Shown here in pieces: positions 1 to 14,064 of a stretch of DNA of 14,064 nucleotides. A program made the translations under genes and the position numbers. Each line of letters begins with the position of its first letter. The first letter of the stretch is position 1. The notes beneath the pieces were generated by a model that was not told the origin of the DNA, did not search any database, and saw only the letters and a program-made list of their open reading frames with translations. Source of the stretch: a virus (Duplodnaviria; Heunggongvirae; Uroviricota; Caudoviricetes); IMG/VR virus record IMGVR_UViG_2563366799_000001, one strand, 5' to 3'.

Positions 1-95
1 TCAAGGCATTTACGGGAGAAAAAATCGGCTCAAACATGAAGAAATGAAATGACTGAGTCAGCCGAGAAGAATTTCCCCGCTTATTCGCACCTTCC
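1..95 (-). mobile_element. IS5 terminal segment (partial copy, body extends beyond window start)
   Basis: Bases 1..95 are the reverse complement of the IS5 end that begins GGAAGGTGCGAATAAGCGGGGAAATTCTTCTCGGCTGACTCAGTCATTTCATTTCTTCATGTTTGAGCCG, and of window bases 13973..14064. Flank next to the IS end is TTAG (96..99), compatible with the IS5 YTAR target. Confidence 0.9.
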
Positions 96-856
96 TTAGC
101 AGCTCTAATACCGCCCTGAATCGCAAGCCCTGTATGGCAATTTGACATTGAGCATGATTGCCATCTGTGCAAGGGACCTCCATTAATCGAAACTTCCAGC
201 AGATCTTTATCTCCTTTCATCCTGACCCCTTCATACAACATATCAAGACGCTCAACAATCAATCCTGTTGGAGGTTCCATTTTTAGAACGAGGGCAAACT
301 CTCCTGGCCCACGTCGTATTGTTATACGCGGGCCGGTACACTCCACATCCCAATTGTCTGATTTAGCTTTCCATTCATTTTCATCTATCAGTAAAGTCTC
401 CTTACCAATAGAATTACAGAAAATTCCTGATAAAAGCATCGGTCCATGTGGTATGGGTGAAGGTTTCACAGAAAGAATGGGTTGTTCGTTGACTACAATC
501 AAATTTTGACAGTTATGAAACGTCACTCCTGCAAATTTTACTGTTATAGGCTCATTATGAAAATCAAACATTTCATTTGCAAAACCAGCCTGTAAGCACT
601 TGGGATTTCTGTCAGCTATTTCCACTGTCTGTGCTGAAAGTCTACCACGAGCTCTTTTTTGATTGCATTGGGAGCAAAGAAGTGTCATTCCATTCGGATC
701 ATGTATTTTGGCATCAACGAAGTCAGGTTTAAAATGCTCATAATCATAAAATCCAAATCCACAAATTACACAGCCAAAGCCGCACCTTTGCCTTATCTGA
801 CGTTTTATTGTCTCAGGTATTCTTCTTGAGAGCCCGTGTTTATTAATATTGTCCAT
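96..856 (-). CDS. HNH-motif nuclease-like protein, 3' end disrupted by IS5 (reading frame runs into the IS without a stop)
   Basis: Minus-strand ATG at 856, first in-frame ATG after an upstream stop. The N-terminus carries CGFGCVIC ... YDYEHFKP ... DPNGMTLLCSQCNQK, an HNH-like Cys/His/Asn pattern. About 253 native codons, then the frame continues into IS5. Low GC relative to neighbours. Absent from the ORF track because it has no stop inside the window. Confidence 0.6.
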
Positions 857-1030
857 ATGGTTAGTACGCTATAAGTTTGTTTCTATAATTTTACCACAAT
901 AGATAAGTTTGTATCAGAAATCGCTATATGGAGTGAGCGGAATATTTATATTATTCATACAATTGCTCTCCCGTACGCAGCCCGCACTTCCGTCATCGCA
1001 GAATGACGGAAGCCTTACTAACTAGCGCCT

Positions 1031-1354
1031 TTATTGAAACAGATTCTGAGGTAAATGCGGCAATACTCGACTCCACTTATCATCCTGCCACGGCTGAAGT
1101 TTTACATGTGCCGTTTCTCGGGCGAGGATTGCTCGCGCTCTGTTGAGTATCTGGGGATATTCTTGCTCGATGGAAGTGAAGTGACCAGCCTCACCATGCT
1201 CCGCATCCTGAAGAAGATGAGTAACGTTCTGGTAGGCAATTAACATCACATTCCCTGCTCGCCATAACCAGGCGAGTGTGCAAAGTTCGTTATCAGTGAA
1301 TTGTTTTGTGATTGGGAATTGTTGAACTGCTAGAACGAGAACGCCAGCATCCAT
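1031..1354 (-). CDS. hypothetical protein (107 aa)
   Basis: Complete ORF in the track with a plausible AGGGA ribosome-binding site upstream; no recognisable motif. Lies between the HNH gene and the recombinase on the same strand. Confidence 0.35.
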   Translation of the reverse strand: MDAGVLVLAVQQFPITKQFTDNELCTLAWLWRAGNVMLIAYQNVTHLLQDAEHGEAGHFTSIEQEYPQILNRARAILARETAHVKLQPWQDDKWSRVLPHLPQNLFQ

Positions 1355-1465
1355 TGGCAGTCCCTATAGTAAAACCATAGCTCAGGACGCTTCGTTCAGG
1401 ATAGATACTTTTATTGTACTTACCTAACTTTCTTACTATAGCACGGTTGAAAAAGTGATTATTAC

Positions 1466-2992
1466 TCAAAAATGAACCTCACCATCAACCATATATTTGA
1501 GAGTACTTATCGCCTGCTGGGCGGATATTGTTTTCATTAAAGGATAGTGTTTAAAAACAATGCCATTCATAAAATAGATATCACAGGTTTTATTATCTGT
1601 ATTGATTATGATTTTTTCGAATGTTTTATAGGCAAGTGTACGACATAGCTCTCGCCCATTTTTACTGGTTAAGTCAATAGCATGAAAATCACCAAGTGAA
1701 CTCACCGCTTTACTCTTCAAAGTTTTTAATGATACCGAAGCCCTTCGTAATTCCTTATCTAATACTCTGATTTTTTCTGCTATAGCGGTAACTTCAGGCG
1801 CGACAGACAATGCAACGATTAAATTATTAATTTTCATCTGAAGCTCAATAATTTTTAACTCTAAAGTTTCATTAGCATCTTTCTTGTTTTCAACTGGTTG
1901 AATTTTGCCACAATTAAAAAGCAATTCATTAATGATATTATAATCAACCAAATCTCTTTTTATTGATGGCCTGTCACATCGATGTAATCTTCTCATCGGA
2001 CAAACATAATAGCCATGCAAACTTCCAGATACCGCATGAACAATCATGGTATTACCACAAGCCTCACACTTCATAACTGTTCGAAGTAGATTTATTAGCA
2101 TAGGATTCTTGCTACTATTGCTAATACCAAAAGGTGCCAACCGAATTTCCTGTACAGCGTAAAACAAATCATCTGATATGACTCTGGGATAATAGCCAGC
2201 GATTTCACTTATCCCTTTCCCTCTTGCACGATATGAAGGTACGCATATACCTATCAGAGCTTTATTCGCTAATAATTTTTCAATTACAGAAGGCCCCCAT
2301 GCACTTTCTTTTCCTGAGAAATTCTTTACAGCATGATCATTTAAATACTTGGCTATTGCATTCAATGAGCGCCTTTCCATCCTGAGTTTAAAAATTAGCT
2401 CAATAGTTTTCACCCTGTCGGGGTCTGGAACAAAGGCCGTTCTTTTGTCATCTAAGGAGAGCCATCTCGGACAAGACGCCGTCATAATCGTACCTGATTC
2501 CAGTGCATCCTGCCGTTTTTTCTTCCATGATAATTTAACCCGACTTGACTTTATCTCGCTTTCTTCATTTGCCCTTTGTGCTATAAGTATGGCTTTTATT
2601 AATGAATATGGCTCATTCAAAGAGTCAATATTATAGACTGTATTGTCGCAAAGAGTTATAACATCAATACCGTGATTCAAAATCAATTTCAGACGTTCAA
2701 TCGCTTCACCGACTTTTTCTCTTGAAAGTCTGTCCAGACTTTCAACTAACAATGTAGTTCCTGGCAATATATAACCATGCTCTATAGCATCTAAAAATTC
2801 CGAAAAAGCTCCTGATTGTGCATGCTTTCCTTTGAATGCACTTAATCCTAAATCTTCATATGTTATGGTATCAAGATAATAATCACTATTTACCTTTAAC
2901 CATTCAGCAATAAGTCTTCTCTGTCGGTTTAATGAGTCGCCAGACATCTGACCTGGTGATGAAAATCGCATATATGCTATGGCTTTTTTCAT
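1466..2992 (-). CDS. ybcK: large serine recombinase (resolvase-type catalytic domain, recombinase domain, zinc-ribbon), YbcK-like
   Basis: 508-aa ORF. N-terminal YMRFSSPGQ matches the serine-recombinase catalytic motif; C-terminal cysteine cluster CEACGNT ... YYVCP ... HRCD. AGGTG ribosome-binding site 5 nt upstream. Same length and same position next to emrE as DLP12 ybcK. Confidence 0.88.
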   Translation of the reverse strand: MKKAIAYMRFSSPGQMSGDSLNRQRRLIAEWLKVNSDYYLDTITYEDLGLSAFKGKHAQSGAFSEFLDAIEHGYILPGTTLLVESLDRLSREKVGEAIERLKLILNHGIDVITLCDNTVYNIDSLNEPYSLIKAILIAQRANEESEIKSSRVKLSWKKKRQDALESGTIMTASCPRWLSLDDKRTAFVPDPDRVKTIELIFKLRMERRSLNAIAKYLNDHAVKNFSGKESAWGPSVIEKLLANKALIGICVPSYRARGKGISEIAGYYPRVISDDLFYAVQEIRLAPFGISNSSKNPMLINLLRTVMKCEACGNTMIVHAVSGSLHGYYVCPMRRLHRCDRPSIKRDLVDYNIINELLFNCGKIQPVENKKDANETLELKIIELQMKINNLIVALSVAPEVTAIAEKIRVLDKELRRASVSLKTLKSKAVSSLGDFHAIDLTSKNGRELCRTLAYKTFEKIIINTDNKTCDIYFMNGIVFKHYPLMKTISAQQAISTLKYMVDGEVHF

Positions 2993-3236
2993 GGTGACAC
3001 CTGCTAACGTATGCTTTTATAAATCTTAGTGGTGAGATATAATTTTTGTTTAATTTTTATTTAAAAAGACAATTACGATCACATTCTCTTGAATATACAA
3101 CAATAATCGTATTGCAATTTGCTTACGCAATAATCTTGAAGGCACAAAAGAATACATAAAAACTAAAAACATTAACAAAAGCGGCCCATGTAAAGATATG
3201 AACCGCCATATTTCAGTCTTTTAAAAGAAATTATTT

Positions 3237-3569
3237 TTAATGTGGTGTGCTTCGTGACAATAAATTAATAACCAACACACCGGCACAAATCAACATCATG
3301 CCTATAACGGCTGGCAGGTCCAGCCGTTGGACGAAAAACCCCCATGACAGTAAGCTAATCAGGACAATACCGACTCCTGACCAGATAGCATAAGCAATCC
3401 CTGTAGGAATATAAGCCAGCGTCTGAGCTAATAACCAGAATGATGCACAGTAACAAATAATTGTACCAACAGATGGCCATAACCGTGTAAAACCTTCTGA
3501 AAACTTCATTAAGGTTGTACCAATGACCTCTGCAAGTATTGCACCACCAAGATAAATATAAGGATTCAT
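3237..3569 (-). CDS. emrE: small multidrug resistance efflux transporter EmrE
   Basis: Translation from MNPYIYLGGAILAEVIGTTLMKFSEGF ... LLSRSTPH is 110 aa and matches EmrE nearly residue for residue from recall. AGGAAAG ribosome-binding site before ATG at 3569. The track ORF (3237..3623) includes 18 upstream codons judged non-coding. Confidence 0.93.
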   Translation of the reverse strand: MNPYIYLGGAILAEVIGTTLMKFSEGFTRLWPSVGTIICYCASFWLLAQTLAYIPTGIAYAIWSGVGIVLISLLSWGFFVQRLDLPAVIGMMLICAGVLVINLLSRSTPH

Positions 3570-4014
3570 AGCATATTCTTTCCTGTTCAAACTGGAGAGA
3601 ATTGTACTACAGATTGAACTCAACTCACCGGTTTCATCATTGTGTATCCATTGATGTTCTTTTGTATACCCTCAATATCCGTTTCATCGCGGTACTCCGG
3701 CGACACTCCTTAAAAATCAGGTTCGGCTCACCTTTCCTGCCCGTTCTCCCCGGGTAGCAAACCGATAATACACCGTTCGCCAGTCCTTACTATCAATGAC
3801 CAAGATTCCTGCCCATATCATTTTAGCCGCAGCCTAATTTATGCTGGTTATTGTTACGTGTGAATTCAGTTAGCTGCATAAATTGTCACGGAAGTGATAC
3901 ATCGATATTATCGAGAAATTCACTCGAATTTATACGATTGAAACTGCACTTATATCTGTTTTAAATACTCCGAACACTCTTTACAACAACTGTGTGAAAA
4001 TGGAGATAATTAAA

Positions 4015-4743
4015 ATGAAAAAGGGTTTGGCTATTTCATTCATTGCCGCCGTGTGTGCATTTGCTGCAAATGCGAGTGCTGAGGAAAGTAAAAACGGGTT
4101 TTATCTAACCGGTAAAGCCGGTGCCTCTGTGGCGTCGTTATCAGACCAGCGTTTTCAGTATGATGAAGGCGATTGGTCAACTGGATTTAAGGGCAGCAAC
4201 AACCATGACACGGCGTTTAGTGGTGGTATCGCAGCGGGTTATGACTTTTACCCACAGTTCAGTATTCCTGTTCGTACGGAGCTTGAATTTTATGCCCGCG
4301 GAAAGGCTGATACAGAATACAATCTTTTTAAGGACGACTGGGTGCGAGCTGACATGAAGAATGAGGTGTCAGTCAACAGCCTGATGTTGAACGCGTACTA
4401 TGACTTCCGGAACGACAGCGCATTCACCCCTTGGGTGTCCGCAGGGATTGGTTATGCAAGAATTCATCAGAAATCAACGGGTGTCATCACCTTCGATAAT
4501 GGATACGGATACAGTGACCGCGCATCTGATTCCCGTTCAGATTCTTCTGATAACTTCGCATGGAGCCTTGGTGCTGGCGTCCGCTATGACGTAACTCCAG
4601 ATGTCAGTCTGGACATCAGTTATCGCTACCTGGATGCAGGTGATGCCAATGTGACTTATACCGATGATTGGGGCGATAAATATAAATCAGATGTTGATGT
4701 AAAAAGTCATGACATTATGCTTGGTGTAACCTATAACTTCTGA
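4015..4743 (+). CDS. outer-membrane beta-barrel protein with signal peptide
   Basis: Start at internal ATG 4015 (MKKGLAISFIAAVCAFAANASA-EE signal peptide with AxA cleavage motif) preceded by GGAG. Alternating aromatic/hydrophilic beta-strand pattern and C-terminal ...GVTYNF, the terminal-Phe signature of outer-membrane barrels. Confidence 0.8.
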   Translation: MKKGLAISFIAAVCAFAANASAEESKNGFYLTGKAGASVASLSDQRFQYDEGDWSTGFKGSNNHDTAFSGGIAAGYDFYPQFSIPVRTELEFYARGKADTEYNLFKDDWVRADMKNEVSVNSLMLNAYYDFRNDSAFTPWVSAGIGYARIHQKSTGVITFDNGYGYSDRASDSRSDSSDNFAWSLGAGVRYDVTPDVSLDISYRYLDAGDANVTYTDDWGDKYKSDVDVKSHDIMLGVTYNF

Positions 4744-4790
4744 ACAAACCTTTTCTAAATTATAATTACACGCTTACTGTGATTAACTAA

Positions 4791-4826
4791 AGCCCCCTGC
4801 AATATATTGCTATGGGGGGCTCTTTC
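4791..4826 (+). terminator. putative rho-independent terminator after the outer-membrane protein gene
   Basis: GC stem GCCCCC / GGGGGC around a 16-17 nt loop (TGCAATATATTGCTA), followed by a short T-containing tract (TCTTTC). About 48 nt after the stop codon. Confidence 0.45.
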
Positions 4827-5144
4827 GCTCATCGTGCAGGATGATTTTTGCCTAATTCCGTTATCACCACAATAATATTCATCGACATTTTCTTAATGGA
4901 CACCTGAAAATATTTTATCGGGTAATATTCCGAGATTTTATTGTTTTTATTCTTTTCCGTTATCTCTGATAATATTGTAAGCATCCGGTGAACTCGCCTT
5001 GCGTGGACTAGCCAGTCGTTGTAGCACTGACGCCGCTGCGTTGAGTTCTTTTTTTCGCCATCAGCTCTCCTGCTTCTGTAGATAAAGAAGAGACAGAAGA
5101 ATGGCGTTGATCACAACGACCAGTAATGCGAATTCATCGGCCCC

Positions 5145-5237
5145 TCACACTGTTACAGCTGATAGTGCAACAACCTCCAACGCACAGAAGCTCTTATGCG
5201 TCCCCAGGTAATCAATAATTGCCTCTTTGCCCGTCAT
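5145..5237 (-). pseudogene. ren: ren remnant (30 codons, premature stop)
   Basis: ATG overlaps the P stop codon (ATGA) as in lambda. Translation MTGKEAIIDYLGTHKSFCALEVVALSAVTV* matches the lambda Ren N-terminus (MTGKEAIIHYLGTHNSFCAPDVAAL...) then terminates. Confidence 0.55.
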
Positions 5238-5935
5238 ACACTTGCTCCTTTCAGCCCAAACTTCGCTTTGATTTCTGCGATCTTCGCCAGAGCCTGAACA
5301 CGATTAAGCGGTCTCCCGCCCATAACAGGAAGTTGTTTTACTGGTTCAGGTATCGCCTCACCACGGTTAATTCGCGCTGTCATACAGGCCAGTTCATCGG
5401 CAGCCTTGCGCCGTAATTCCGCATCAGTCAGCGCATTGGCCCGCATGTTCTGATACAGGTTGGTAACCAGCCAGTAGTGCGCGTTTGATTTCCACGGATA
5501 AGACTCTGCATCCGGATACAGGCCACGTTTCCGGCAATACTCGTAAACCATATCAACCAGCTCGCTGGCGTTTGGCAGCCCGGCGGTAACGGATGCTTCT
5601 TCCCGGCACCAGGCAACAAACTGCCCGGGTGATGGCAGGAATGGTCGATTCTGCCGACGGGCTACGCGCATTCCTGCGTTAACCTGTTCCATCGTGGTGA
5701 TCCCGTTTTCCCGGAAAGCCAGAACCCACTGGCGGCGGATTTCGTTCAGTTCGTTCTGGTCCCGGTTAGCCAGGCTCGCCGGGAAAGTTGCCAGTAACTG
5801 GCTGAACACACCATTGATGATCTGCGCTACCTGTTGTACCTGCGGCTTTTCGTCGTACTGTTCCGGCATGTTGTTGGCGATCCGGCGCATCTGCTCACGG
5901 TCAAAGTTAACCATCTGTGCGGCGATGTTTTTCAT
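5234..5935 (-). CDS. P: lambda-type replication protein P (DnaB helicase loader)
   Basis: 233-aa translation MKNIAAQMVNFDREQMRRIANNMPEQYDEKPQ ... KFGLKGASV matches lambda P almost exactly from recall. GGGGTGG ribosome-binding site; start overlaps the stop of the upstream O fragment. Confidence 0.95.
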   Translation of the reverse strand: MKNIAAQMVNFDREQMRRIANNMPEQYDEKPQVQQVAQIINGVFSQLLATFPASLANRDQNELNEIRRQWVLAFRENGITTMEQVNAGMRVARRQNRPFLPSPGQFVAWCREEASVTAGLPNASELVDMVYEYCRKRGLYPDAESYPWKSNAHYWLVTNLYQNMRANALTDAELRRKAADELACMTARINRGEAIPEPVKQLPVMGGRPLNRVQALAKIAEIKAKFGLKGASV

Positions 5936-6397
5936 AAATCCACCCCGTAAATCCAGTCAGTGTTTGTCAGGTCGAGTTTTGATTTTCCGGCTGTCACGCC
6001 AGCCTGTTGCTTGTTACGGTTGATTTCGAGTTGGGTCCACTTGTCGCGGAGTTTGGCCGGACTTAGCACGTTACCGGACCAGAAGTTGTCCTGGCATGCC
6101 CAGCGGAACAGCACGCACATGTCGCGGTGGTTACGGCCGTCACGTTCACGCATCAGACGGATATCGTTAGCCCACCCTGCAAAATTCGGTTTTCTGGCTG
6201 ATGGCGCGATGGTCTTCACCATGTCAAACATCCACTCTGCGGCGGTCAGGTCTTCTGCTGTCCCCCACTTGCTGCCGCTCTGAATCGCAGCATCCGCTTT
6301 CACCACAGGAAGGTCGTTTTCTGGCAGGTCAGAGGATTCGCCAGAATTCTCGGACGAATAAGGTTTTATATTGTCTTTTGTTAGTTTGTCTTTTGTG
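5932..6397 (-). pseudogene. O: replication protein O, C-terminal (P-interacting) part only; N-terminal origin-binding domain deleted
   Basis: Translation from ...[59 protein letters not shown] ... TDWIYGVDL matches the lambda O C-terminal half. The first ~35 codons of the 191-aa track ORF (5932..6507) are antisense to gam and are not O. Confidence 0.8.
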
Positions 6398-6400
6398 TTT
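6344..6400 (-). promoter_or_regulatory. remnant of ori-lambda AT-rich segment (iteron array absent)
   Basis: In O sense: ACACAAAAGACAAACTAACAAAAGACAATATAAAACCTTATTCGTCCGAGAATTCTGGCGAATCC, resembling the A/T-rich part of ori-lambda including the GAATTC site inside O. No TCCCTCAAA-type iterons upstream; the sequence switches to gam at about 6405..6415. Confidence 0.45.
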
Positions 6401-6414
6401 ACCTGATTCGGGTA

Positions 6415-6534
6415 AGTGCCTTTACCCGTGCATTTGATGACGATGTTGAGTTTCAGGAGCGCATGGCAGAACACATCCGGTACATGGTTGAAACCATTGC
6501 TCACCATCAGGTTGATATTGATTCAGAGGTATAA
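6415..6534 (+). pseudogene. gam: gam 3' fragment (last ~40 codons, no start)
   Basis: Plus-strand frame reads ...[39 protein letters not shown], matching the lambda Gam C-terminus. Ends 5 nt before the bet start, as in lambda. Confidence 0.75.
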
Positions 6535-6539
6535 AACGG

Positions 6540-7325
6540 ATGAGTACAGCACTCGCAACGCTGGCTGGGAAGCTGGCTGAACGTGTCGGCATGGATTCTG
6601 TCGACCCACAGGAACTGATCACCACTCTTCGCCAGACGGCATTTAAAGGTGATGCCAGCGATGCGCAGTTCATCGCATTGTTGATCGTCGCCAACCAGTA
6701 CGGCCTTAATCCGTGGACGAAAGAAATTTACGCCTTCCCTGACAAGCAGAACGGCATCGTTCCGGTGGTGGGCGTTGATGGCTGGTCCCGCATCATCAAT
6801 GAAAACCAGCAGTTTGATGGCATGGACTTTGAGCAGGACAATGAATCCTGCACATGCCGGATTTACCGCAAGGACCGTAATCATCCGATCTGCGTTACCG
6901 AGTGGATGGATGAATGCCGCCGCGAACCATTCAAAACCCGTGAAGGCAGAGAAATCACGGGGCCGTGGCAGTCGCATCCTAAACGGATGTTACGGCATAA
7001 AGCCATGATTCAGTGTGCCCGTCTCGCCTTCGGATTTGCGGGTATCTATGACAAGGATGAAGCCGAGCGCATTGTCGAAAATACCGCATACACTGCAGAA
7101 CGTCAGCCGGAACGCGACATCACTCCGGTTAACGATGAAACCATGCAGGAGATTAACACTCTGCTGATTGCCCTGGACAAAACATGGGATGACGACTTAT
7201 TGCCGCTCTGTTCCCAGATATTTCGCCGCGACATTCGCGCATCGTCGGAACTGACACAGGCCGAAGCAGTGAAAGCTCTTGGATTCCTGAAACAGAAAGC
7301 CTCTGAACAGAAGGTGGCTGCATGA
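6540..7325 (+). CDS. bet: Red beta single-strand annealing protein (Bet)
   Basis: 261-aa translation [38 protein letters not shown] ... EQKVAA matches lambda Bet from recall; stop overlaps the exo start. Confidence 0.96.
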
Positions 7326-8002
7326 CACCGGACATTATCCTGCAGCGTACCGGGATCGACGTGAGAGCTGTCGAACAGGGGGATGATGCGTGGCACAAAT
7401 TACGGCTCGGCGTCATCACCGCTTCAGAAGTTCACAACGTGATAGCAAAACCCCGCTCAGGAAAGAAATGGCCTGACATGAAAATGTCCTACTTCCACAC
7501 CCTGCTTGCCGAGGTTTGCACCGGTGTGGCTCCGGAAGTTAACGCTAAGGCGCTGGCCTGGGGAAAACAGTACGAGAACGACGCCAGAGCCCTCTTTGAG
7601 TTCACTTCCGGCGTGAATGTTACTGAATCCCCGATCATCTATCGCGACGAAAGTATGCGCACCGCCTGCTCTCCCGATGGTTTATGCAGTGACGGCAACG
7701 GCCTTGAACTGAAATGCCCGTTTACCTCCCGGGATTTCACGAAATTCCGGCTCGGTGGTTTCGAGGCAATAAAATCGGCTTACATGGCCCAGGTGCAGTA
7801 CAGCATGTGGGTGACTCGAAAAGATGCCTGGTACTTTGCCAACTATGACCCGCGCATGAAGCGTGAAGGCCTGCATTATGTCGTGATTGAGCGGAATGAA
7901 AAGTACATGGCGAGTTTTGACGAGATGGTGCCGGAGTTCATCGAAAAAATGGACGAGGCACTGGCTGAAATTGGTTTTGTATTTGGGGAGCAATGGCGAT
8001 GA
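7322..8002 (+). CDS. exo: lambda exonuclease (Red alpha, 5'-3' dsDNA exonuclease)
   Basis: 226-aa translation [47 protein letters not shown] ... FVFGEQWR matches lambda Exo from recall. Confidence 0.96.
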
Positions 8003-8181
8003 AGCATCCTCACGATAATATCCGGGTAGGCGCGATCACTTTCGTCTACTCCGTTACAAAGCGAGGCTGGGTATTTCCCGGCCTTTCTGTTACCCGAAAT
8101 CCCCTGAAAGCACAGCGGCTGGCTGAGGAGATAAATAATAAACGGGGAGCTGTATGCACAAAGCATCTCCTGTTGAGTTAA
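7993..8181 (+). CDS. lambda orf60a-like small hypothetical protein
   Basis: 62-aa [29 protein letters not shown]... directly after exo with overlapping start, the position of lambda orf60a. Confidence 0.55.
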
Positions 8182-8345
8182 GAACGAGCATTGAGATGGC
8201 ACATAGCCTCGCTCAAATTGGAGTCAGGTTTGTGCCAATGCCAGTAGAAACAGACGAAGAATTTCATACGTTAGCCGCATCCCTTTCACAAAAGCTGGAA
8301 ATGATGGTGGCGAAAGCAGAAGCAGATGAGAGAGACCAGGTATGA
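8154..8345 (+). CDS. lambda orf63-like small hypothetical protein
   Basis: 63-aa [26 protein letters not shown]..., next in the series of small early-left ORFs. Confidence 0.55.
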   Translation: MHKASPVELRTSIEMAHSLAQIGVRFVPMPVETDEEFHTLAASLSQKLEMMVAKAEADERDQV

Positions 8346-8421
8346 CAACCACTGAATGCATTTTTCTGGCAGCGGGCTTCATATTCTGTGTGCTTATGCT
8401 TGCCGACATGGGACTTGTTCA

Positions 8422-8637
8422 ATGACACCTCAGCAAGAAAACGCCCTTCGCAGTATTGCCCGTCAGGCTAATTCTGAAATCAAAAAAGCCAGACAGCAGT
8501 TTCCGGATAAAAACGTCGATGACATTTGCCGTAGCGTACTGAAGAAGCACCGCGAAACGGTAACGCTGATGGGATTCACACCGACTCATTTAAGCCTGGC
8601 GATCGGCATGTTAAACGGCGTCTTTAAGGAGCGATGA
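8422..8637 (+). CDS. lambda orf61-like small hypothetical protein
   Basis: Internal ATG at 8422 (MTPQQENALRSIARQANSEIKK...) chosen over the track start 8356; the upstream 22 codons look non-coding. Confidence 0.5.
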   Translation: MTPQQENALRSIARQANSEIKKARQQFPDKNVDDICRSVLKKHRETVTLMGFTPTHLSLAIGMLNGVFKER

Positions 8638-8658
8638 ACATGAAAAGCAAAATCATCA

Positions 8659-8682
8659 GGGAGCTACAGGCTCCTTTTTTAT
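8659..8682 (+). terminator. putative rho-independent terminator
   Basis: GGAGC-TACAG-GCTCC hairpin (8660..8674) followed by TTTTTT ATT. Confidence 0.5.
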
Positions 8683-8735
8683 TATTCGCATTCACCCTCA
8701 AGCGTATTAACCAACAATTCAGGGATTAATGGAAG

Positions 8736-8954
8736 ATGGCAGACATCATTGATTCAGCATCAGAAATCGAAGAATTACAGCGCAATACAGCAATAAAAAT
8801 GCGTCGTCTGAACCACCAGGTTATATCTGCCACTCATTGTTGTGAGTGTGGCGATCCCATAGATGAACGAAGACGCCTGGCCATTCAGGGTTGTCGGACT
8901 TGTGCAAGTTGCCAGGAGGAGATCGAACTTAAGAACAAACAATGGGGATTGTGA
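8736..8954 (+). CDS. TraR/DksA-family C4-type zinc-finger protein
   Basis: 72 aa with CCECGDPIDERRRLAIQGCRTCASCQ (CxxC-17-CxxC) near the C-terminus, typical of phage TraR/DksA-like proteins. GGAAG ribosome-binding site. Confidence 0.7.
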   Translation: MADIIDSASEIEELQRNTAIKMRRLNHQVISATHCCECGDPIDERRRLAIQGCRTCASCQEEIELKNKQWGL

Positions 8955-9001
8955 TGGCCTCAAAGCAGCAAATTTCAACATCGTCCAACTGAGGTGTAAA
9001 A

Positions 9002-9280
9002 ATGTTCAGAATCATTTTTCCTAACACCTGGTACGTCGACCACCACGGCACTCCCTGCAAAATCCTGCGTTCTACCCACAACAAAGTTCACTACATCCGA
9101 AAAGGCAGAACATGTATCGCCAGCATGTTCCGCTTTAATCATGACTTTGAACCTGTGAATAAAGCTGATGCAGATCGGATAGCAGAAGAGATCGAAACGG
9201 CAGAACACATTAAGAAGTTACGTGACATGCGTTCAAAAAGCAGAGGTAACCATGGAATCATACAGCCTCACACTCGATGA
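9002..9280 (+). CDS. hypothetical prophage protein (92 aa)
   Basis: Complete ORF with strong GAGGTG ribosome-binding site 5 nt upstream; no recognisable motif. 3' end overlaps the xis start. Confidence 0.45.
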   Translation: MFRIIFPNTWYVDHHGTPCKILRSTHNKVHYIRKGRTCIASMFRFNHDFEPVNKADADRIAEEIETAEHIKKLRDMRSKSRGNHGIIQPHTR

Positions 9281-9602
9281 GGCCTGTCAGTTTCTCAAGA
9301 TATCCAGACCTACCGCTACCAACTGGATACGAACAGGCCGCCTACAGGCAACACGCAAAGACCCCACTAAACTAAAATCTCCTTACCTCACAACACGACA
9401 AGCCTGCATTGCGGCGCTTCAGTCTCCGCTGCATACTGTCCAGGTGAGCGCGGGTGATGGCATAACAGAGGAAAGAAAATGTCACTCTTCCGCAGAGGTG
9501 AAATATGGTACGCCAGTTTCACATTGCCGAACGGTAAAAGATTTAAACAGTCTCTTGGAACAAAGGACAAAAGGCAGGCGACAGAACTCCATGACAAGCT
9601 AA
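9252..9602 (+). CDS. xis: excisionase (P22-type Xis, 116 aa)
   Basis: Internal ATG 9252 ([32 protein letters not shown]..., helix-turn-helix) preceded by GAGGT. Sits immediately upstream of int and overlaps it by about 124 nt in another frame. Confidence 0.65.
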
Positions 9603-10642
9603 AGGCTGAAGCATGGCGGGTCAGCAAACTTGGTGAAATACCTGATATAACGTTCGAGGAAGCGTGTGTCAGGTGGCTTGAAGAGAAAGCACATAAAAAA
9701 TCACTGGACGATGACAAAAGCCGGATCGGATTCTGGCTTCAACATTTCGCAGGAATGCAACTAAGAGACATTACTGAATCAAAAATTTATTCAGCAATGC
9801 AGAAAATGACGAACCGGCGTAATGAGGAAAACTGGAAACTCAGGGCAGAAGCATGCAGAAAAAAAGGGAAACCTGTTCCAGAATACAAGCCAAAACCAGC
9901 GTCTGTTGCAACGAAGGCTACGCATCTTTCATTTATAAAAGCCCTACTAAGAGCCGCAGAGCGTGAATGGAAAATGCTGGATAAGGCACCAATTATTAAA
10001 GTGCCTCAACCAAAGAATAAACGGATCCGCTGGCTGGAGCCCCATGAAGCACAAAGGCTGATTGATGAATGTCCGGAGCCATTAAAGTCTGTTGTTGAAT
10101 TTGCACTGGCAACAGGCTTAAGACGCTCGAACATCATCAACCTTGAATGGCAACAAATAGATATGCAGCGCCGGGTGGCATGGATAAACCCGGAAGAGAG
10201 TAAATCAAACCGCGCAATCGGCGTTGCGCTGAATGATACTGCATGTCGCGTATTGAAAAAACAAATCGGGAATCATCACCGTTGGGTATTTGTGTACAAG
10301 GAAAGCTGTACCAAACCAGACGGAACGAAAGCGCCAACAGTAAGGAAGATGCGGTATGACGCAAACACAGCCTGGAAAGCGGCGCTGAGACGGGCTGGTA
10401 TTGATGATTTCAGATTTCACGACTTGAGACACACCTGGGCAAGTTGGCTGGTTCAAGCCGGAGTCCCGTTGTCAGTGTTACAGGAAATGGGAGGCTGGGA
10501 GTCTATCGAAATGGTTCGTCGATATGCTCACCTTGCACCTAATCACCTTACCGAACACGCACGGCAAATAGACTCGATCCTGAACCCATCGGTCCCAAAT
10601 TTGTCCCAGTCAAAAAATAAGGAAGGTACTAATGATGTGTAA
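9479..10642 (+). CDS. int: P22/DLP12-type tyrosine integrase
   Basis: 387-aa ORF. N-terminus [34 protein letters not shown]; catalytic-domain motifs [12 protein letters not shown] (HxxR) and VRRYAHL (Tyr). 3' end abuts a tRNA-Thr 3' fragment, the P22-family att arrangement. Confidence 0.93.
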
Positions 10643-10656
10643 CTTATTGATTTAAA

Positions 10657-10708
10657 TGGTGCCGATAATAGGAGTCGAACCTACGACCTTCGCATTACGA
10701 ATGCGAAG
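10657..10708 (-). other. 3' fragment of tRNA-Thr(CGU) (thrW-type att core); 5' half of the tRNA absent
   Basis: Reverse complement reads ...TCGCATTCGTAATGCGAAGGTCGTAGGTTCGACTCCTATTATCGGCACCA: anticodon stem-loop with CGU anticodon, variable loop, T arm, acceptor 3' strand and CCA. Sequence to the right does not continue as the D arm or 5' acceptor strand. Confidence 0.8.
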
Positions 10709-10790
10709 TTTTTATATTTTAACTGCTTGAACAACCATCAGAAATCACAAATTTATCATTTTAAATCATAATATTAAAACAAAAAACCTG

Positions 10791-10820
10791 TTGATGTAAA
10801 TTGATGAGTGTTGATGTTTA
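10791..10820 (+). repeat. three tandem 10-bp-phased TTGATG repeats upstream of the second integrase
   Basis: TTGATGTAAA / TTGATGAGTG / TTGATGTTTA at 10791, 10801 and 10811, about 70-100 bp upstream of the int ATG at 10889. Confidence 0.6.
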
Positions 10821-10888
10821 TCCTTTCAATTTACTTACACCAGCCGTTACATTACTGTAAACCGTAATCCCCAACAGGAACCCTAAAA

Positions 10889-12208
10889 ATGGCGCTTTCA
10901 AGACAAAAACTAACCTTCGAACGAATTCGAAGATTTACTTTACCTGAAGGGAAAAACCAAGTTTTCCTTTGGGATACGGACGTAACAAGCTTGGCATGTC
11001 GAGCAACTCGTGGAGCAAAAGCCTTTGTATTCCAAAGCCTGTATGCGGGAAAAACCCTTCGCATGACCATTGGCAACATTAACGATTGGAGGATTGATGA
11101 TGCGAGGGCCGAAGCCAGGCGACTGCAAACATTAATCGATACTGGGATAGATCCGCGTATAGCTAAGGCGGAAAAAATTGCTGAAGCGGAATCACAGCAG
11201 GCTGAATCTCGTAAAACGAAGGCAACCTTTTCAAGCGCTTGGGAAGATTATCTTGATGAATTGAGAACCGGAATCAGCGCAAAAACTAAACGCCCCTACT
11301 CTGCACGCTACATTGCCGATCACGTTAACTTGTCCAGTCGTGGAGGCGAAAGTAAAAAAAGAGGCCGGGGCCCAACCTCACCTGGGCCACTGGCTAGCCT
11401 GCTCGACCGACCATTATCAGAACTAACACCAGAGAACATTGCCGAATGGCTAAGTACAGAGAGACAAAATCGGCCTACCGTCACTGCTCATGCCTACCGT
11501 CTGTTGCGTGCATTCATCAAATGGGCTAATTACCAGAAAAAATATCAGGGAATAATCGATGGCGATCTTGCACAAGATCATAACGTGAGAAAAATGGTTC
11601 CAATATCAGCGAGCAAAGCGGGAGATTGCTTACAAAAAGAACAGCTCAAAAGCTGGTTCAGTGCCGTGCGTAGCCTCAATAATCCCATTGCATCAGCCTA
11701 TCTCCAAGTGCTTTTGCTCACCGGTGCACGGCGTGAAGAAATTTCCTCACTTCGCTGGTCTGACATAGATTTCAAATGGTCAAGCATGAGAATTAAAGAC
11801 AAGATCGAAGGCGAGCGAATTATCCCCCTCACTCCCTATGTTTCTGACTTGTTACGCTCACTGATGGAGATCCCCAATCGTGGTACAAACGAGGAGAATT
11901 GGGTTTTCAGAAGTAACAGCAAAAGTGGCAAAATTATTGAACCGCGTTCAGCACATAATAGAGCATTAACTCGCGCGGAGTTACCACATATCAGCTTGCA
12001 CGGATTGCGCCGTAGTTTTGGGACCCTCGCTGAATGGGTCGAAGTACCAACAGGTATTGTTGCGCAGATTATGGGCCATAAGCCTAGCGCTCTTGCTGAA
12101 AAGCACTATCGCCGCCGTCCATTAGATTTGCTAAGAAAATGGCATGAAAAAGTTGAATTATGGATCTTAGAAGAAGCAAAAATAAAAAACAACGTTGATA
12201 AGCGTTGA
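10889..12208 (+). CDS. P4-type tyrosine integrase
   Basis: 439-aa ORF. C-terminal catalytic motifs LHGLRRSFGTLAEW and KHYRRR (Tyr); long N-terminal arm-binding-type domain. Unrelated in sequence to the upstream P22-type Int. Confidence 0.88.
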   Translation: MALSRQKLTFERIRRFTLPEGKNQVFLWDTDVTSLACRATRGAKAFVFQSLYAGKTLRMTIGNINDWRIDDARAEARRLQTLIDTGIDPRIAKAEKIAEAESQQAESRKTKATFSSAWEDYLDELRTGISAKTKRPYSARYIADHVNLSSRGGESKKRGRGPTSPGPLASLLDRPLSELTPENIAEWLSTERQNRPTVTAHAYRLLRAFIKWANYQKKYQGIIDGDLAQDHNVRKMVPISASKAGDCLQKEQLKSWFSAVRSLNNPIASAYLQVLLLTGARREEISSLRWSDIDFKWSSMRIKDKIEGERIIPLTPYVSDLLRSLMEIPNRGTNEENWVFRSNSKSGKIIEPRSAHNRALTRAELPHISLHGLRRSFGTLAEWVEVPTGIVAQIMGHKPSALAEKHYRRRPLDLLRKWHEKVELWILEEAKIKNNVDKR

Positions 12209-12225
12209 TTTTATCAAATATCAAC
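12194..12225 (+). repeat. GTTGAT direct repeats (10-bp spacing) followed by inverted copies, at the 3' end of the integrase gene
   Basis: GTTGAT at 12194 and 12204, then ATCAA at 12213 and ATCAAC at 12220, forming an imperfect palindrome that overlaps the int stop codon. Same motif as the array at 10791..10820. Confidence 0.55.
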
Positions 12226-12247
12226 AACTTACATAAAATCACATGTG

Positions 12248-12275
12248 TTGACAGAAATTTTTTTTCAGTTATCTT
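12248..12275 (+). promoter_or_regulatory. putative sigma70 promoter for the downstream operon
   Basis: Consensus -35 TTGACA at 12248..12253, 16-bp T-rich spacer, -10-like TATCTT at 12270..12275. Not verified. Confidence 0.3.
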
Positions 12276-12322
12276 TTATTACTGCTAACTACATTCACTC
12301 ACTAAGCAGGAGATTAACTACA

Positions 12323-12748
12323 GTGACTAACCCAATAACTGTATCAAGAGAAGACCGAAGTGCGGAAATCAGAGCGAGATGGGGTTTACATCCGACTAAA
12401 AACAAAAGTTCTAATTTTTGGGAAACAACAATTCAGCGTTTTAATAATAGTAGTACTGACCGAATACTACCTCTTTGGCACCGTGTTTCAAAACTTTTAG
12501 TTGCTATTAGGAATGTAGTCAATACTATAACATGCCCTTTTCCACCAAAGGGGAATACTTCCCGCTCACGCCGAAGTTCAACAACGTCATCAAAAAACTC
12601 ATCATCATCTTCATCGGATGGTAGTAGTAGCGACCCCGATCCCGATAGAGACCCCATATTCACCCCTTTTCATTTCATTCTTTCATCTCTGTTAAAAACA
12701 ATGATCGTCTTATTTGCCCACATATCAAATGTTGGGGTGATGAAATGA
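12323..12748 (+). CDS. hypothetical protein with Ser/Asp-rich low-complexity segment (GTG start); coding strand uncertain
   Basis: GTG at 12323 preceded by AGGAG 10 nt upstream; stop overlaps the next gene's ATG (ATGA coupling). Contains SRSRRSSTTSSKNSSSSSSDGSSSDPDPDRD. An antisense ORF (12433..12663) with an acidic stretch is an alternative. Confidence 0.3.
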   Translation: MTNPITVSREDRSAEIRARWGLHPTKNKSSNFWETTIQRFNNSSTDRILPLWHRVSKLLVAIRNVVNTITCPFPPKGNTSRSRRSSTTSSKNSSSSSSDGSSSDPDPDRDPIFTPFHFILSSLLKTMIVLFAHISNVGVMK

Positions 12749-12966
12749 GCGATATCAAACATCAAAAACCCTCTCAGTCACAACTAATTTCTACCCGCGA
12801 GTTAGCTAATATTATTGGCTATGAAGTACAAACTATTCGAGCTTGGCTTTGCAAAGACAAACTGCCTAATGGTTTACCGCGACCGAAGAAAATTAAAAAC
12901 CGACACTATTGGTCACGTAAAGACATTGATAGATACCTATTAACCTTCTCAGTATATAGTAACTAA
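12745..12966 (+). CDS. AlpA-like helix-turn-helix phage regulatory / excisionase-family protein
   Basis: 73 aa. ISTRELANIIGYEVQTIRAWL then LPRPKKIKNRHYWSRKDIDRYL, the same pattern as AlpA (HTH followed by FPKK...W...EIDEWL). Position just downstream of a P4-type integrase is typical. Confidence 0.6.
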   Translation: MSDIKHQKPSQSQLISTRELANIIGYEVQTIRAWLCKDKLPNGLPRPKKIKNRHYWSRKDIDRYLLTFSVYSN

Positions 12967-12977
12967 TAGAGGCCTCC

Positions 12978-13003
12978 CCCGGCTATTCTAAAGAATAGCC
13001 GGG
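12978..13003 (+). terminator. perfect 11-bp-stem hairpin (possible terminator or protein-binding palindrome)
   Basis: CCCGGCTATTC-TAAA-GAATAGCCGGG, 12 nt after the AlpA-like stop; followed by TTAGTTAAT (weak U tract). Confidence 0.4.
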
Positions 13004-13088
13004 TTAGTTAATACAAACCTTCCATTAACAATGGGGGGAGATTAATACTATTTATCACATCTCACATTAACAAAATTCAAGGTCACAT

Positions 13089-13853
13089 ATGAAAAAACGC
13101 ATCACTTTCAGCGTAAACAATAGTTCTACTATTGATGCAATTGACGACTATAGCAATGCAAAAGGATACTCCAGGTCAGAGGTGATATCATTTTTATTAA
13201 ACGCCACAGTCCCAGCATTGAATAAAATAACATCGCAATATCATATAGCTCAAACTTTGGAGTCAACATTAGGCTGTATTTTTGAAGAGAAGGCCCCGTC
13301 AATAGCACGGGGGGAGCCAAAATTAACTTACGAAGAGTTTTTTCATTCCGTCTGGAACACTCACATTCGACACCGGAACGAGGTTATCGACCAGAATTTT
13401 TATGCACACAAAATATCTCATGATAAGATGGGGAAGAGTGAAAAAAAATTAATTCATGAAAAGCTCACATACATTATAAAAAGCTTCAATGTAAAAAAAG
13501 CAATTTTTATTTACACAGATCGGCGCGTGAACCACAAACATCTAATTGCAGGAGGGTTGTCAAATATCATACTGATAAAGGAAACAGTTTACGATGGTTG
13601 TTTTTTTGATTTGAGCAGCATTGTGATTATGCCAATCTTTGAACTTATTACATTTGGAATTGAAGAGGTATTGAAAAGAAATAAAATCCACCATAAACAA
13701 TCATGCTATTGCTGGATACCAATTTATTACACAAATGATCTAGCGGTAATGGTCCCGGTGATTGCCGAAGGCGATACACCTCAAAAGGCGATGAAAGGAG
13801 GAGATGCCATCATTATTAACCCCTTTAACGGTGAAGTAAACCATACTTTCTGA
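13089..13853 (+). CDS. hypothetical protein, N-terminal ribbon-helix-helix-like motif plus ~200-aa domain of unknown function
   Basis: 254-aa ORF with AAGG ribosome-binding site. N-terminus MKKRITFSVNNSSTIDAIDDYSNAKGYSRSEVISFLL fits the CopG/Arc-type RHH pattern (beta-strand then helices). Remainder unrecognised. Markedly AT-rich relative to the prophage genes. Confidence 0.65.
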   Translation: MKKRITFSVNNSSTIDAIDDYSNAKGYSRSEVISFLLNATVPALNKITSQYHIAQTLESTLGCIFEEKAPSIARGEPKLTYEEFFHSVWNTHIRHRNEVIDQNFYAHKISHDKMGKSEKKLIHEKLTYIIKSFNVKKAIFIYTDRRVNHKHLIAGGLSNIILIKETVYDGCFFDLSSIVIMPIFELITFGIEEVLKRNKIHHKQSCYCWIPIYYTNDLAVMVPVIAEGDTPQKAMKGGDAIIINPFNGEVNHTF

Positions 13854-13935: not shown

Positions 13936-13972
13936 ATGCCTACTAACAAAGCAAAATCAAAGAAAATTCTAG
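13936..13972 (+). pseudogene. 5' stub of a gene (12 codons) cut off by IS5
   Basis: GAGGG ribosome-binding site, then ATG at 13936 encoding MPTNKAKSKKIL; the IS5 end starts at 13973 and the frame stops shortly inside it. Confidence 0.35.
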
Positions 13973-14064
13973 GGAAGGTGCGAATAAGCGGGGAAATTCT
14001 TCTCGGCTGACTCAGTCATTTCATTTCTTCATGTTTGAGCCGATTTTTTCTCCCGTAAATGCCT
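13973..14064 (+). mobile_element. IS5 terminal segment (partial copy, body extends beyond window end)
   Basis: GGAAGGTGCGAATAAGCGGGGAAATTCTTCTCGGCTGACTCAGTCATTTCATTTCTTCATG..., the IS5 terminus; exact inverted copy of bases 1..92. Preceded by CTAG (YTAR target). Confidence 0.92.

Follow-up and report, generated by a model that had tools for sequence, protein, structure and literature searches.

A gam-O junction in a lambdoid prophage probably marks a 4,000-bp deletion of the immunity and origin module

Introduction

In bacteriophage lambda, the replication origin lies inside gene O, where four iterons adjoin an A/T-rich segment. The C-terminal domain of lambda O is the part of the protein that interacts with P. 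DLP12 of E. coli K-12 is a lambdoid prophage at argU with intD, and its central immunity, origin and O region has been deleted, with the remaining fragments facing each other. That deletion runs from the middle of P to the middle of exo and has removed bet, gam and O altogether. The argU prophages of strains E2865 and STEC1588 retain an intact immunity region, and an intact prophage is also found in E. coli S1 (NZ_CP010226.1, ~3.184-3.195 Mb), at the tRNA-Thr gene beside proA. Degeneration of prophages by deletion is established (PMC6379469).

Here we analyze a stretch of 14,064 nt from the IMG/VR record IMGVR_UViG_2563366799_000001, hereafter the window, in which the 3' end of gam is joined to the middle of O. 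The original prediction, made from the sequence, had read this join as a clean deletion scar, with lambda as the reference. We compared the window with lambda, with the argU prophages, with the S1 prophage and with four other deletions in related elements.

Results

Genes on the two sides of the join lie on opposite strands. On the minus strand, P is intact (5234-5935, 233 aa; Pfam Phage_lambda_P, E 9.5e-62) and shares 229 of 234 aligned positions with lambda P, stop counted. It is adjoined by an O remnant (5932-6426, minus) comprising 164 C-terminal codons plus the stop, collinear with S1 up to position 5009 of that locus. Inside the remnant are the A/T-rich origin segment (6355-6398, left limit approximate), which aligns with lambda, and the sole complete origin iteron left in the window, TTACCTGATTCGGGTAA (6399-6415), located by an iteron pattern scan. 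Three-way alignments placed the deletion junction, GCCTTTACC, at 6418-6426. On the plus strand, the gam 3' fragment (6427-6534), which matches lambda 32931-32816 and S1 gam, is followed by intact bet (6540-7325, 261 aa; Pfam RecT) and intact exo (7322-8002, 226 aa; Pfam YqaJ). Counting stops, Bet shares 261 of 262 positions with its lambda counterpart and Exo 222 of 227. Spanning the join on the minus strand is a chimeric ORF of 191 aa (5932-6507), taken from the ORF list and its translation. Farther left, ren is split into two pieces (3665-3858 and ~5149-5233) by a beta-barrel outer-membrane protein gene on the strand opposite to ren (3994-4743, 249-aa ORF; Pfam OMP_b-brl), and ybcK encodes a large serine recombinase (1466-2992; Pfam Resolvase, Recombinase, Zn_ribbon_recom). 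The prophages of S1 and STEC1588 carry the same insertion in ren.

The comparison with lambda consisted of a BLAST search of the window against lambda 27000-46000. Window positions 5149-6398, on the minus strand, correspond to lambda 40368-39119 and contain P together with O from the A/T-rich origin segment onward. Lambda 39119 is the first base past iteron 4 (39101-39118), and the alignment of the A/T-rich segment starts exactly there. Positions 6419-8931 correspond to lambda 32931-30418, comprising the last 116 nt of gam followed by bet, exo and orf60a. Apart from a ren fragment, nothing else of lambda 27000-46000 was found in the window by this search. The expectation that the plus strand would carry about the last 40 codons of gam and the minus strand O from the A/T-rich segment onward agrees with these alignments, the exact number of gam codons being 38.

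Lambda proved an unsuitable reference for the breakpoint itself. It placed the end of O at 6398 and left 20 bases (6399-6418) unexplained, which comparison with prophages of the right O type revealed as an iteron of another specificity. As the iterons of the parent differ from those of lambda, the homology to O runs 28 nt beyond the limit that lambda had suggested, to 6426. The O/P module of the window otherwise resembles that of lambda, with a nearly identical O C-terminal domain and an origin inside O. Unlike lambda with its four iterons, the parent of the window had five (consensus TTACCTNNTTYRGGTAA) and an O N-terminal domain of a different specificity.

We used a 221-nt probe spanning the join to find relatives of both arms. 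On the O side, 6300-6426 is matched at 100% by many E. coli prophages, and matches to gam genes start at 6418, so that the two arms overlap by 9 nt. The E2865 and STEC1588 prophages have the O type of the window, and the interval between the window's two endpoints measures 3,977 bp in E2865 and 4,850 bp in STEC1588. As parents they were rejected, their right arms being only ~89% identical to the window. Among intact prophages, that of S1 is the best comparator, and it fits better than lambda, which had originally been taken as the parent. Window positions 3673-6426 match positions 2256-5009 of the S1 locus (L044) at 99.75%, and positions 6418-10705 match 9001-13288 at 99.70%. Relative to S1, the window is short by exactly 4,000 bp. 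Close to the join, the left arm has one mismatch over 1,227 nt (5200-6426) and the right arm four over 1,683 nt, not counting junction base 6421. The two elements share an iteron type and an integrase, and their similarity extends from the split ren through P, O, gam, bet, exo and int to the att fragment. They differ in that S1 retains the 4,000 bp and is without the emrE-ybcK segment found leftward in the window. By these alignments, the parent is shown to have been essentially the prophage still intact in S1, although S1 is a proxy and the immunity region of the true parent could have differed.

The three-way alignment resolves the join to a few bases. The O side reads ...GGGTAAGTGCCTTTACC/TGATTTGGGTAA and the gam side ...AAAAAAGCCATTACC/CGTGCATTTGATG, with the slash at the join, and the window reads ...GGGTAAGTGCCTTTACCCGTGCATTTGATG. 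Across 6418-6426, the window agrees with the O side at all nine bases and with the gam side at eight. Exact microhomology amounts to 5 nt, TTACC, at 6422-6426. Since base 6421 is a T from O and base 6427 is a C from gam, the crossover must lie inside these five bases. The original prediction had suggested looking for microhomology at 6397-6415, to the left of where it is found. One donor of TTACC is the left arm of the second origin iteron, within O, and the other is gam codons 60-62 (GCCATTACC). TTACC occurs seven times in the P/O interval, with five copies in the iteron array, which thus presents many targets. When endpoints were paired at random 200,000 times within these two regions of S1, at least 5 nt of microhomology arose with a frequency of 0.0058. 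Five bases is short, and about 1 in 170 random joins would equal it.

Alignment to S1 showed no filler DNA at the join, where only O and gam bases are present, and together with the lambda alignments it bears out the reading of a clean deletion linking the gam 3' end to mid-O. Neither an IS end, a target duplication, nor an att-like or recombinase core was found at the junction in the alignments. The closest IS5 ends are those at 1-95 and 13970-14064. The locus therefore has the features expected of a microhomology-mediated deletion: collinear arms without an insert, a short shared sequence beyond chance with one copy kept, and no mobile-element or recombinase site.

The content of the missing interval was taken from the RefSeq annotation and Pfam domains of the S1 locus. 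From O, residues 1-145 are deleted, including Phage_rep_O (residues 21-115), along with four of the five iterons. Also gone are a YdaT-domain gene, a gene for a YdaS-like helix-turn-helix protein in the position of cro, a cI-like repressor gene with HTH_3 and Peptidase_S24 domains, a DUF7946/DUF7947 gene, a 68-aa gene annotated as a cell-division inhibitor (Kil-like), and the first 60 of the 98 gam codons. Presumably lost as well were the divergent early promoters, which should lie between the repressor gene and the cro-like one. Accordingly, the window has no repressor and no immunity region, as had been claimed, but the lost genes are not the kil, cIII, N, rex, cI, cro and cII of lambda, S1 having a different content. 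The claim that the origin iterons were removed likewise holds for four of five and not for all, given the complete iteron at 6399-6415.

The DUF7946/DUF7947 protein of S1 (287 aa; 7198-8061 of the S1 locus) is encoded just downstream of the repressor. At the equivalent place, STEC1588 carries a gene for an ImmA/IrrE metallopeptidase and a DUF4411 gene. This slot, in the position of lambda rexAB, has variable cargo, possibly defense genes.

Little of the origin and of its initiator remains. Scanning for TYACC-N7-GGTRA returned one site in the window and five in each of the E2865, STEC1588 and S1 prophages. In this O type, TTACC forms the left arm of the iteron consensus, and the window retains the iteron adjoining the A/T-rich segment plus the TTACC of the second one. 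The O remnant corresponds to residues 146-309 of the 309-aa S1 protein, that is, the linker and the C-terminal domain. Compared with a complete lambda-type O/P module, the window has P but lacks both the iteron-binding N-terminal domain of O and a full array beside the A/T-rich segment, the segment itself being present and the array reduced to one iteron. With no O N-terminal domain encoded and a single iteron that could not nucleate an O-some, the element would be unable to replicate in situ.

The gam remnant and the chimeric ORF are likewise products of truncation. Together with junction bases, the gam fragment comprises the last 38 codons and the stop at 6532-6534. A TAG at 6382-6384 interrupts its frame, the first available start codon is Met 76 of the 98-aa form, and the longest in-frame ORF is 23 aa. 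The window thus encodes no complete 98-aa Gam (Pfam PF06064), whereas S1 Gam covers the full profile (1-98). The 191-aa ORF begins with an ATG at 6507 in antisense gam, continues for 27 codons and then enters the O frame for 164. No Shine-Dalgarno-like sequence was seen upstream of this ATG on inspection, and the ORF matched no Pfam family. It is probably a by-product of the junction, an accidental read-through of antisense gam into the O frame, as the original prediction proposed.

We also scanned for regulatory signals. A consensus scan of both strands found no sigma-70-like promoter at 6200-6800, and a scan for promoters and terminators gave nothing above shuffled expectation near the junction. 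Farther left on the plus strand, two promoter-like sites (4848-4911) do not exceed what shuffles yield. P and the O remnant now appear to stand head to head with the gam remnant, bet and exo with no promoter between them. P, the O remnant, bet and exo would be silent, judging from this crude consensus scan and from the loss of the regulatory interval.

The integration site also points to S1. Following the prophage int is an att fragment of 49 nt (10657-10705, minus strand), identified by alignment as the 3' part of a tRNA-Thr gene. ARAGORN found no tRNA in the window. The int gene and att fragment match the S1 tRNA-Thr prophage at 99.7%, and the element lacks the argU/intD integration of DLP12. 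Positions 93-6426, containing ybcK, emrE, ren, P and O, are nevertheless 99.2% identical to the STEC1588 argU prophage. A link to the DLP12 family therefore holds for the shared emrE and ybcK but fails for the site, with an integrase and an att fragment like those of S1.

Several features of the wider window deserve mention. It is a mosaic, S1-like (99.7%) from 3673 rightward and of the argU DLP12 type in the ybcK-emrE segment (93-3672; 99.2% to STEC1588), which is absent from S1. IS5 termini lie at both ends (1-95 and 13970-14064) in inverted orientation, each 100% identical to the end of K-12 IS5B, and the 13.9-kb segment thus lies between two IS5 copies. Directly after the att fragment is a second integrative island (10889-13853), cut off by IS5, that carries a 439-aa tyrosine integrase (10889-12208), a gene for an AlpA-like HTH_17 protein (12745-12966) and a 254-aa gene. 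E. coli ECONIH4 and CAVP776 have this tandem arrangement too, and ECONIH4 carries sucrose-utilization genes further on.

We then considered where else the junction occurs. With the 221-nt probe, the two arms were contiguous in none of 5,426 complete E. coli genomes, and coverage of the window by any complete E. coli genome stayed below 80%. An exact search with the junction 30-mer found no match in GTDB representative genomes, and the junction 19-mer had one match there, in Paenibacillus, which we attribute to chance. In metagenomes, the 19-mer gave 35 matches, 34 of them by chance. The remaining contig, OGEB01003566.1, is 100% identical to the window over 3004-6670 and spans the join. At window position 3004 (CTAA target), it differs from the window in running into an IS5 end, which implies an independent assembly of a different genomic state. 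A 14-mer representing gam alleles with T at 6421 had only chance matches among viral contigs, none of them gam-like.

Comparable deletions occur in other prophages, whose endpoints we give on S1 coordinates. The window has its left endpoint at 5009, in O, and its right endpoint at 9005-9009, in gam, with TTACC shared. EC6563 joins 4251 in P to 9006-9008 in gam through TAC and is represented in two complete genomes. G4/9 joins 3947 in P to ~8867 in gam through TCAC, a deletion seen in G4/9 itself. In 2015C-4136CT1, 4379 in P is joined to 8655 in the Kil-like gene with no microhomology, and seven complete genomes have this join. These three are independent deletions in which a P fragment meets gam or kil and, as in the window, bet and exo are intact. 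They differ from the window in that their left ends lie in P rather than O, leaving no O fragment or iteron, and in having 3, 4 and 0 nt of microhomology. The exoD/peaD join of K-12 DLP12 links 4128 in P to 10306 in exo through TA, 2 nt, and was found in 306 of 5,426 complete genomes. Besides the central loss, this element has emrE, ybcK and ren in common with the window.

The gam endpoint of EC6563 (positions 5464-5469 of its locus) falls within 1-2 nt of 6422-6426 in the window, at ATTACC/CGTGC. Right arms of the two elements are ~3% diverged, and their left ends differ. This coincidence in gam, noted post hoc and with a rough p of ~0.04, may reflect a hotspot or chance.

Discussion

Taken together, our results make it very probable that the join is the scar of a single 4,000-bp deletion in an integrated lambdoid prophage, caused by RecA-independent illegitimate recombination between two short matches. 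The partners would have been the TTACC in the left arm of iteron 2, within O, and the TTACC in gam codons 60-62. The route may have been replication slippage (slipped mispairing), single-strand annealing after a break, or another, all of them compatible with the sequence. The event must have taken place in the prophage state, since a free phage without the O DNA-binding domain and most of the origin could not replicate. The resulting element is predicted to be non-inducible and to express neither Kil nor Gam, a loss that would be neutral or favorable for the host.

Rather than neutral decay, the deletion could represent a selected step of domestication, in which the lethal functions (induction, in-situ replication, Kil and Gam) were disarmed while bet, exo and P were kept, the O C-terminal fragment possibly titrating the P of incoming phages. 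Consistent with this, five different deletions in related prophages have removed the same central module, bet and exo are intact in four of the five, and P, bet and exo are full length in the window. However, in K-12 DLP12 bet is gone, as are most of exo and most of P, which shows that these genes are not kept generally. With arms 99.7% identical to an intact prophage, the event in the window is too recent for selection to be measured, and the chimeric ORF has no evident promoter or ribosome-binding site. Moreover, deletions that ground a prophage would be over-represented among survivors even if the retained genes were useless. We therefore consider domestication unlikely. The broader proposal, that such disarming deletions are recurrently selected, with the iteron array and the gam ATTACC/CGTGC site as hotspots and with the Red genes, P and the O C-terminal fragment kept for host benefit, seems to us more doubtful still.

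Less probable again is that a dedicated enzyme or a break hotspot in gam, instead of microhomology, determined the endpoints. Enzymes are at hand: the prophage encodes YbcK and Int, which might act at secondary sites, and IS5 copies flanking the window could generate adjacent deletions. The nearly shared gam endpoint of EC6563, whose left end is a different one in P, would also fit a hotspot (rough chance ~0.04). Yet the junction shows none of the marks of an IS, a target duplication or an att-like core, and ybcK was not seen at the G4/9 and 2015C-4136CT1 loci, where similar deletions occurred. The five mapped deletions have five left ends, three of the five right ends are at other sites, and the shared endpoint was spotted post hoc.

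There is very little chance that the junction arose in assembly, through the false joining of two prophage fragments over a short repeat. Such errors are conceivable here, as lambdoid prophages are repetitive, IS5 ends bound the window, and the junction is in no complete E. coli genome. Against this, the independent metagenome contig OGEB01003566.1 is identical over 3,667 nt across the junction with another left context, and an overlap of 5-9 nt is too short to mislead an assembler. Finally, although the homology to lambda O ends exactly at the boundary between iterons and A/T-rich segment, like a classic mosaic joint, and the iteron at 6399-6415 is of a non-lambda type, the reading that no deletion occurred and that 6400-6510 is a diverged but complete O N-terminus with its own iterons is effectively refuted: from 6427 on, the opposite strand reads as gam, with the near-identity to S1 given above, Phage_rep_O is absent from the 191-aa ORF but present in S1 O, and one iteron of five is present.

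A single deletion in an S1-type prophage thus remains the preferred explanation, and it has practical consequences for annotation. The 191-aa ORF should be treated as an O pseudogene without its N-terminus, and the gam piece as a fragment. As it lacks a repressor, a complete origin and an initiator DNA-binding domain, the prophage is best scored as defective. The junction itself is usable as a lineage marker, being known from one metagenome contig and none of the 5,426 complete E. coli genomes. Beyond annotation the finding has little import, as it is ordinary prophage decay of a kind already seen in E. coli K-12. Along with the four other junctions, it adds one more data point for the repeated loss of the central immunity and origin module through short homologies.
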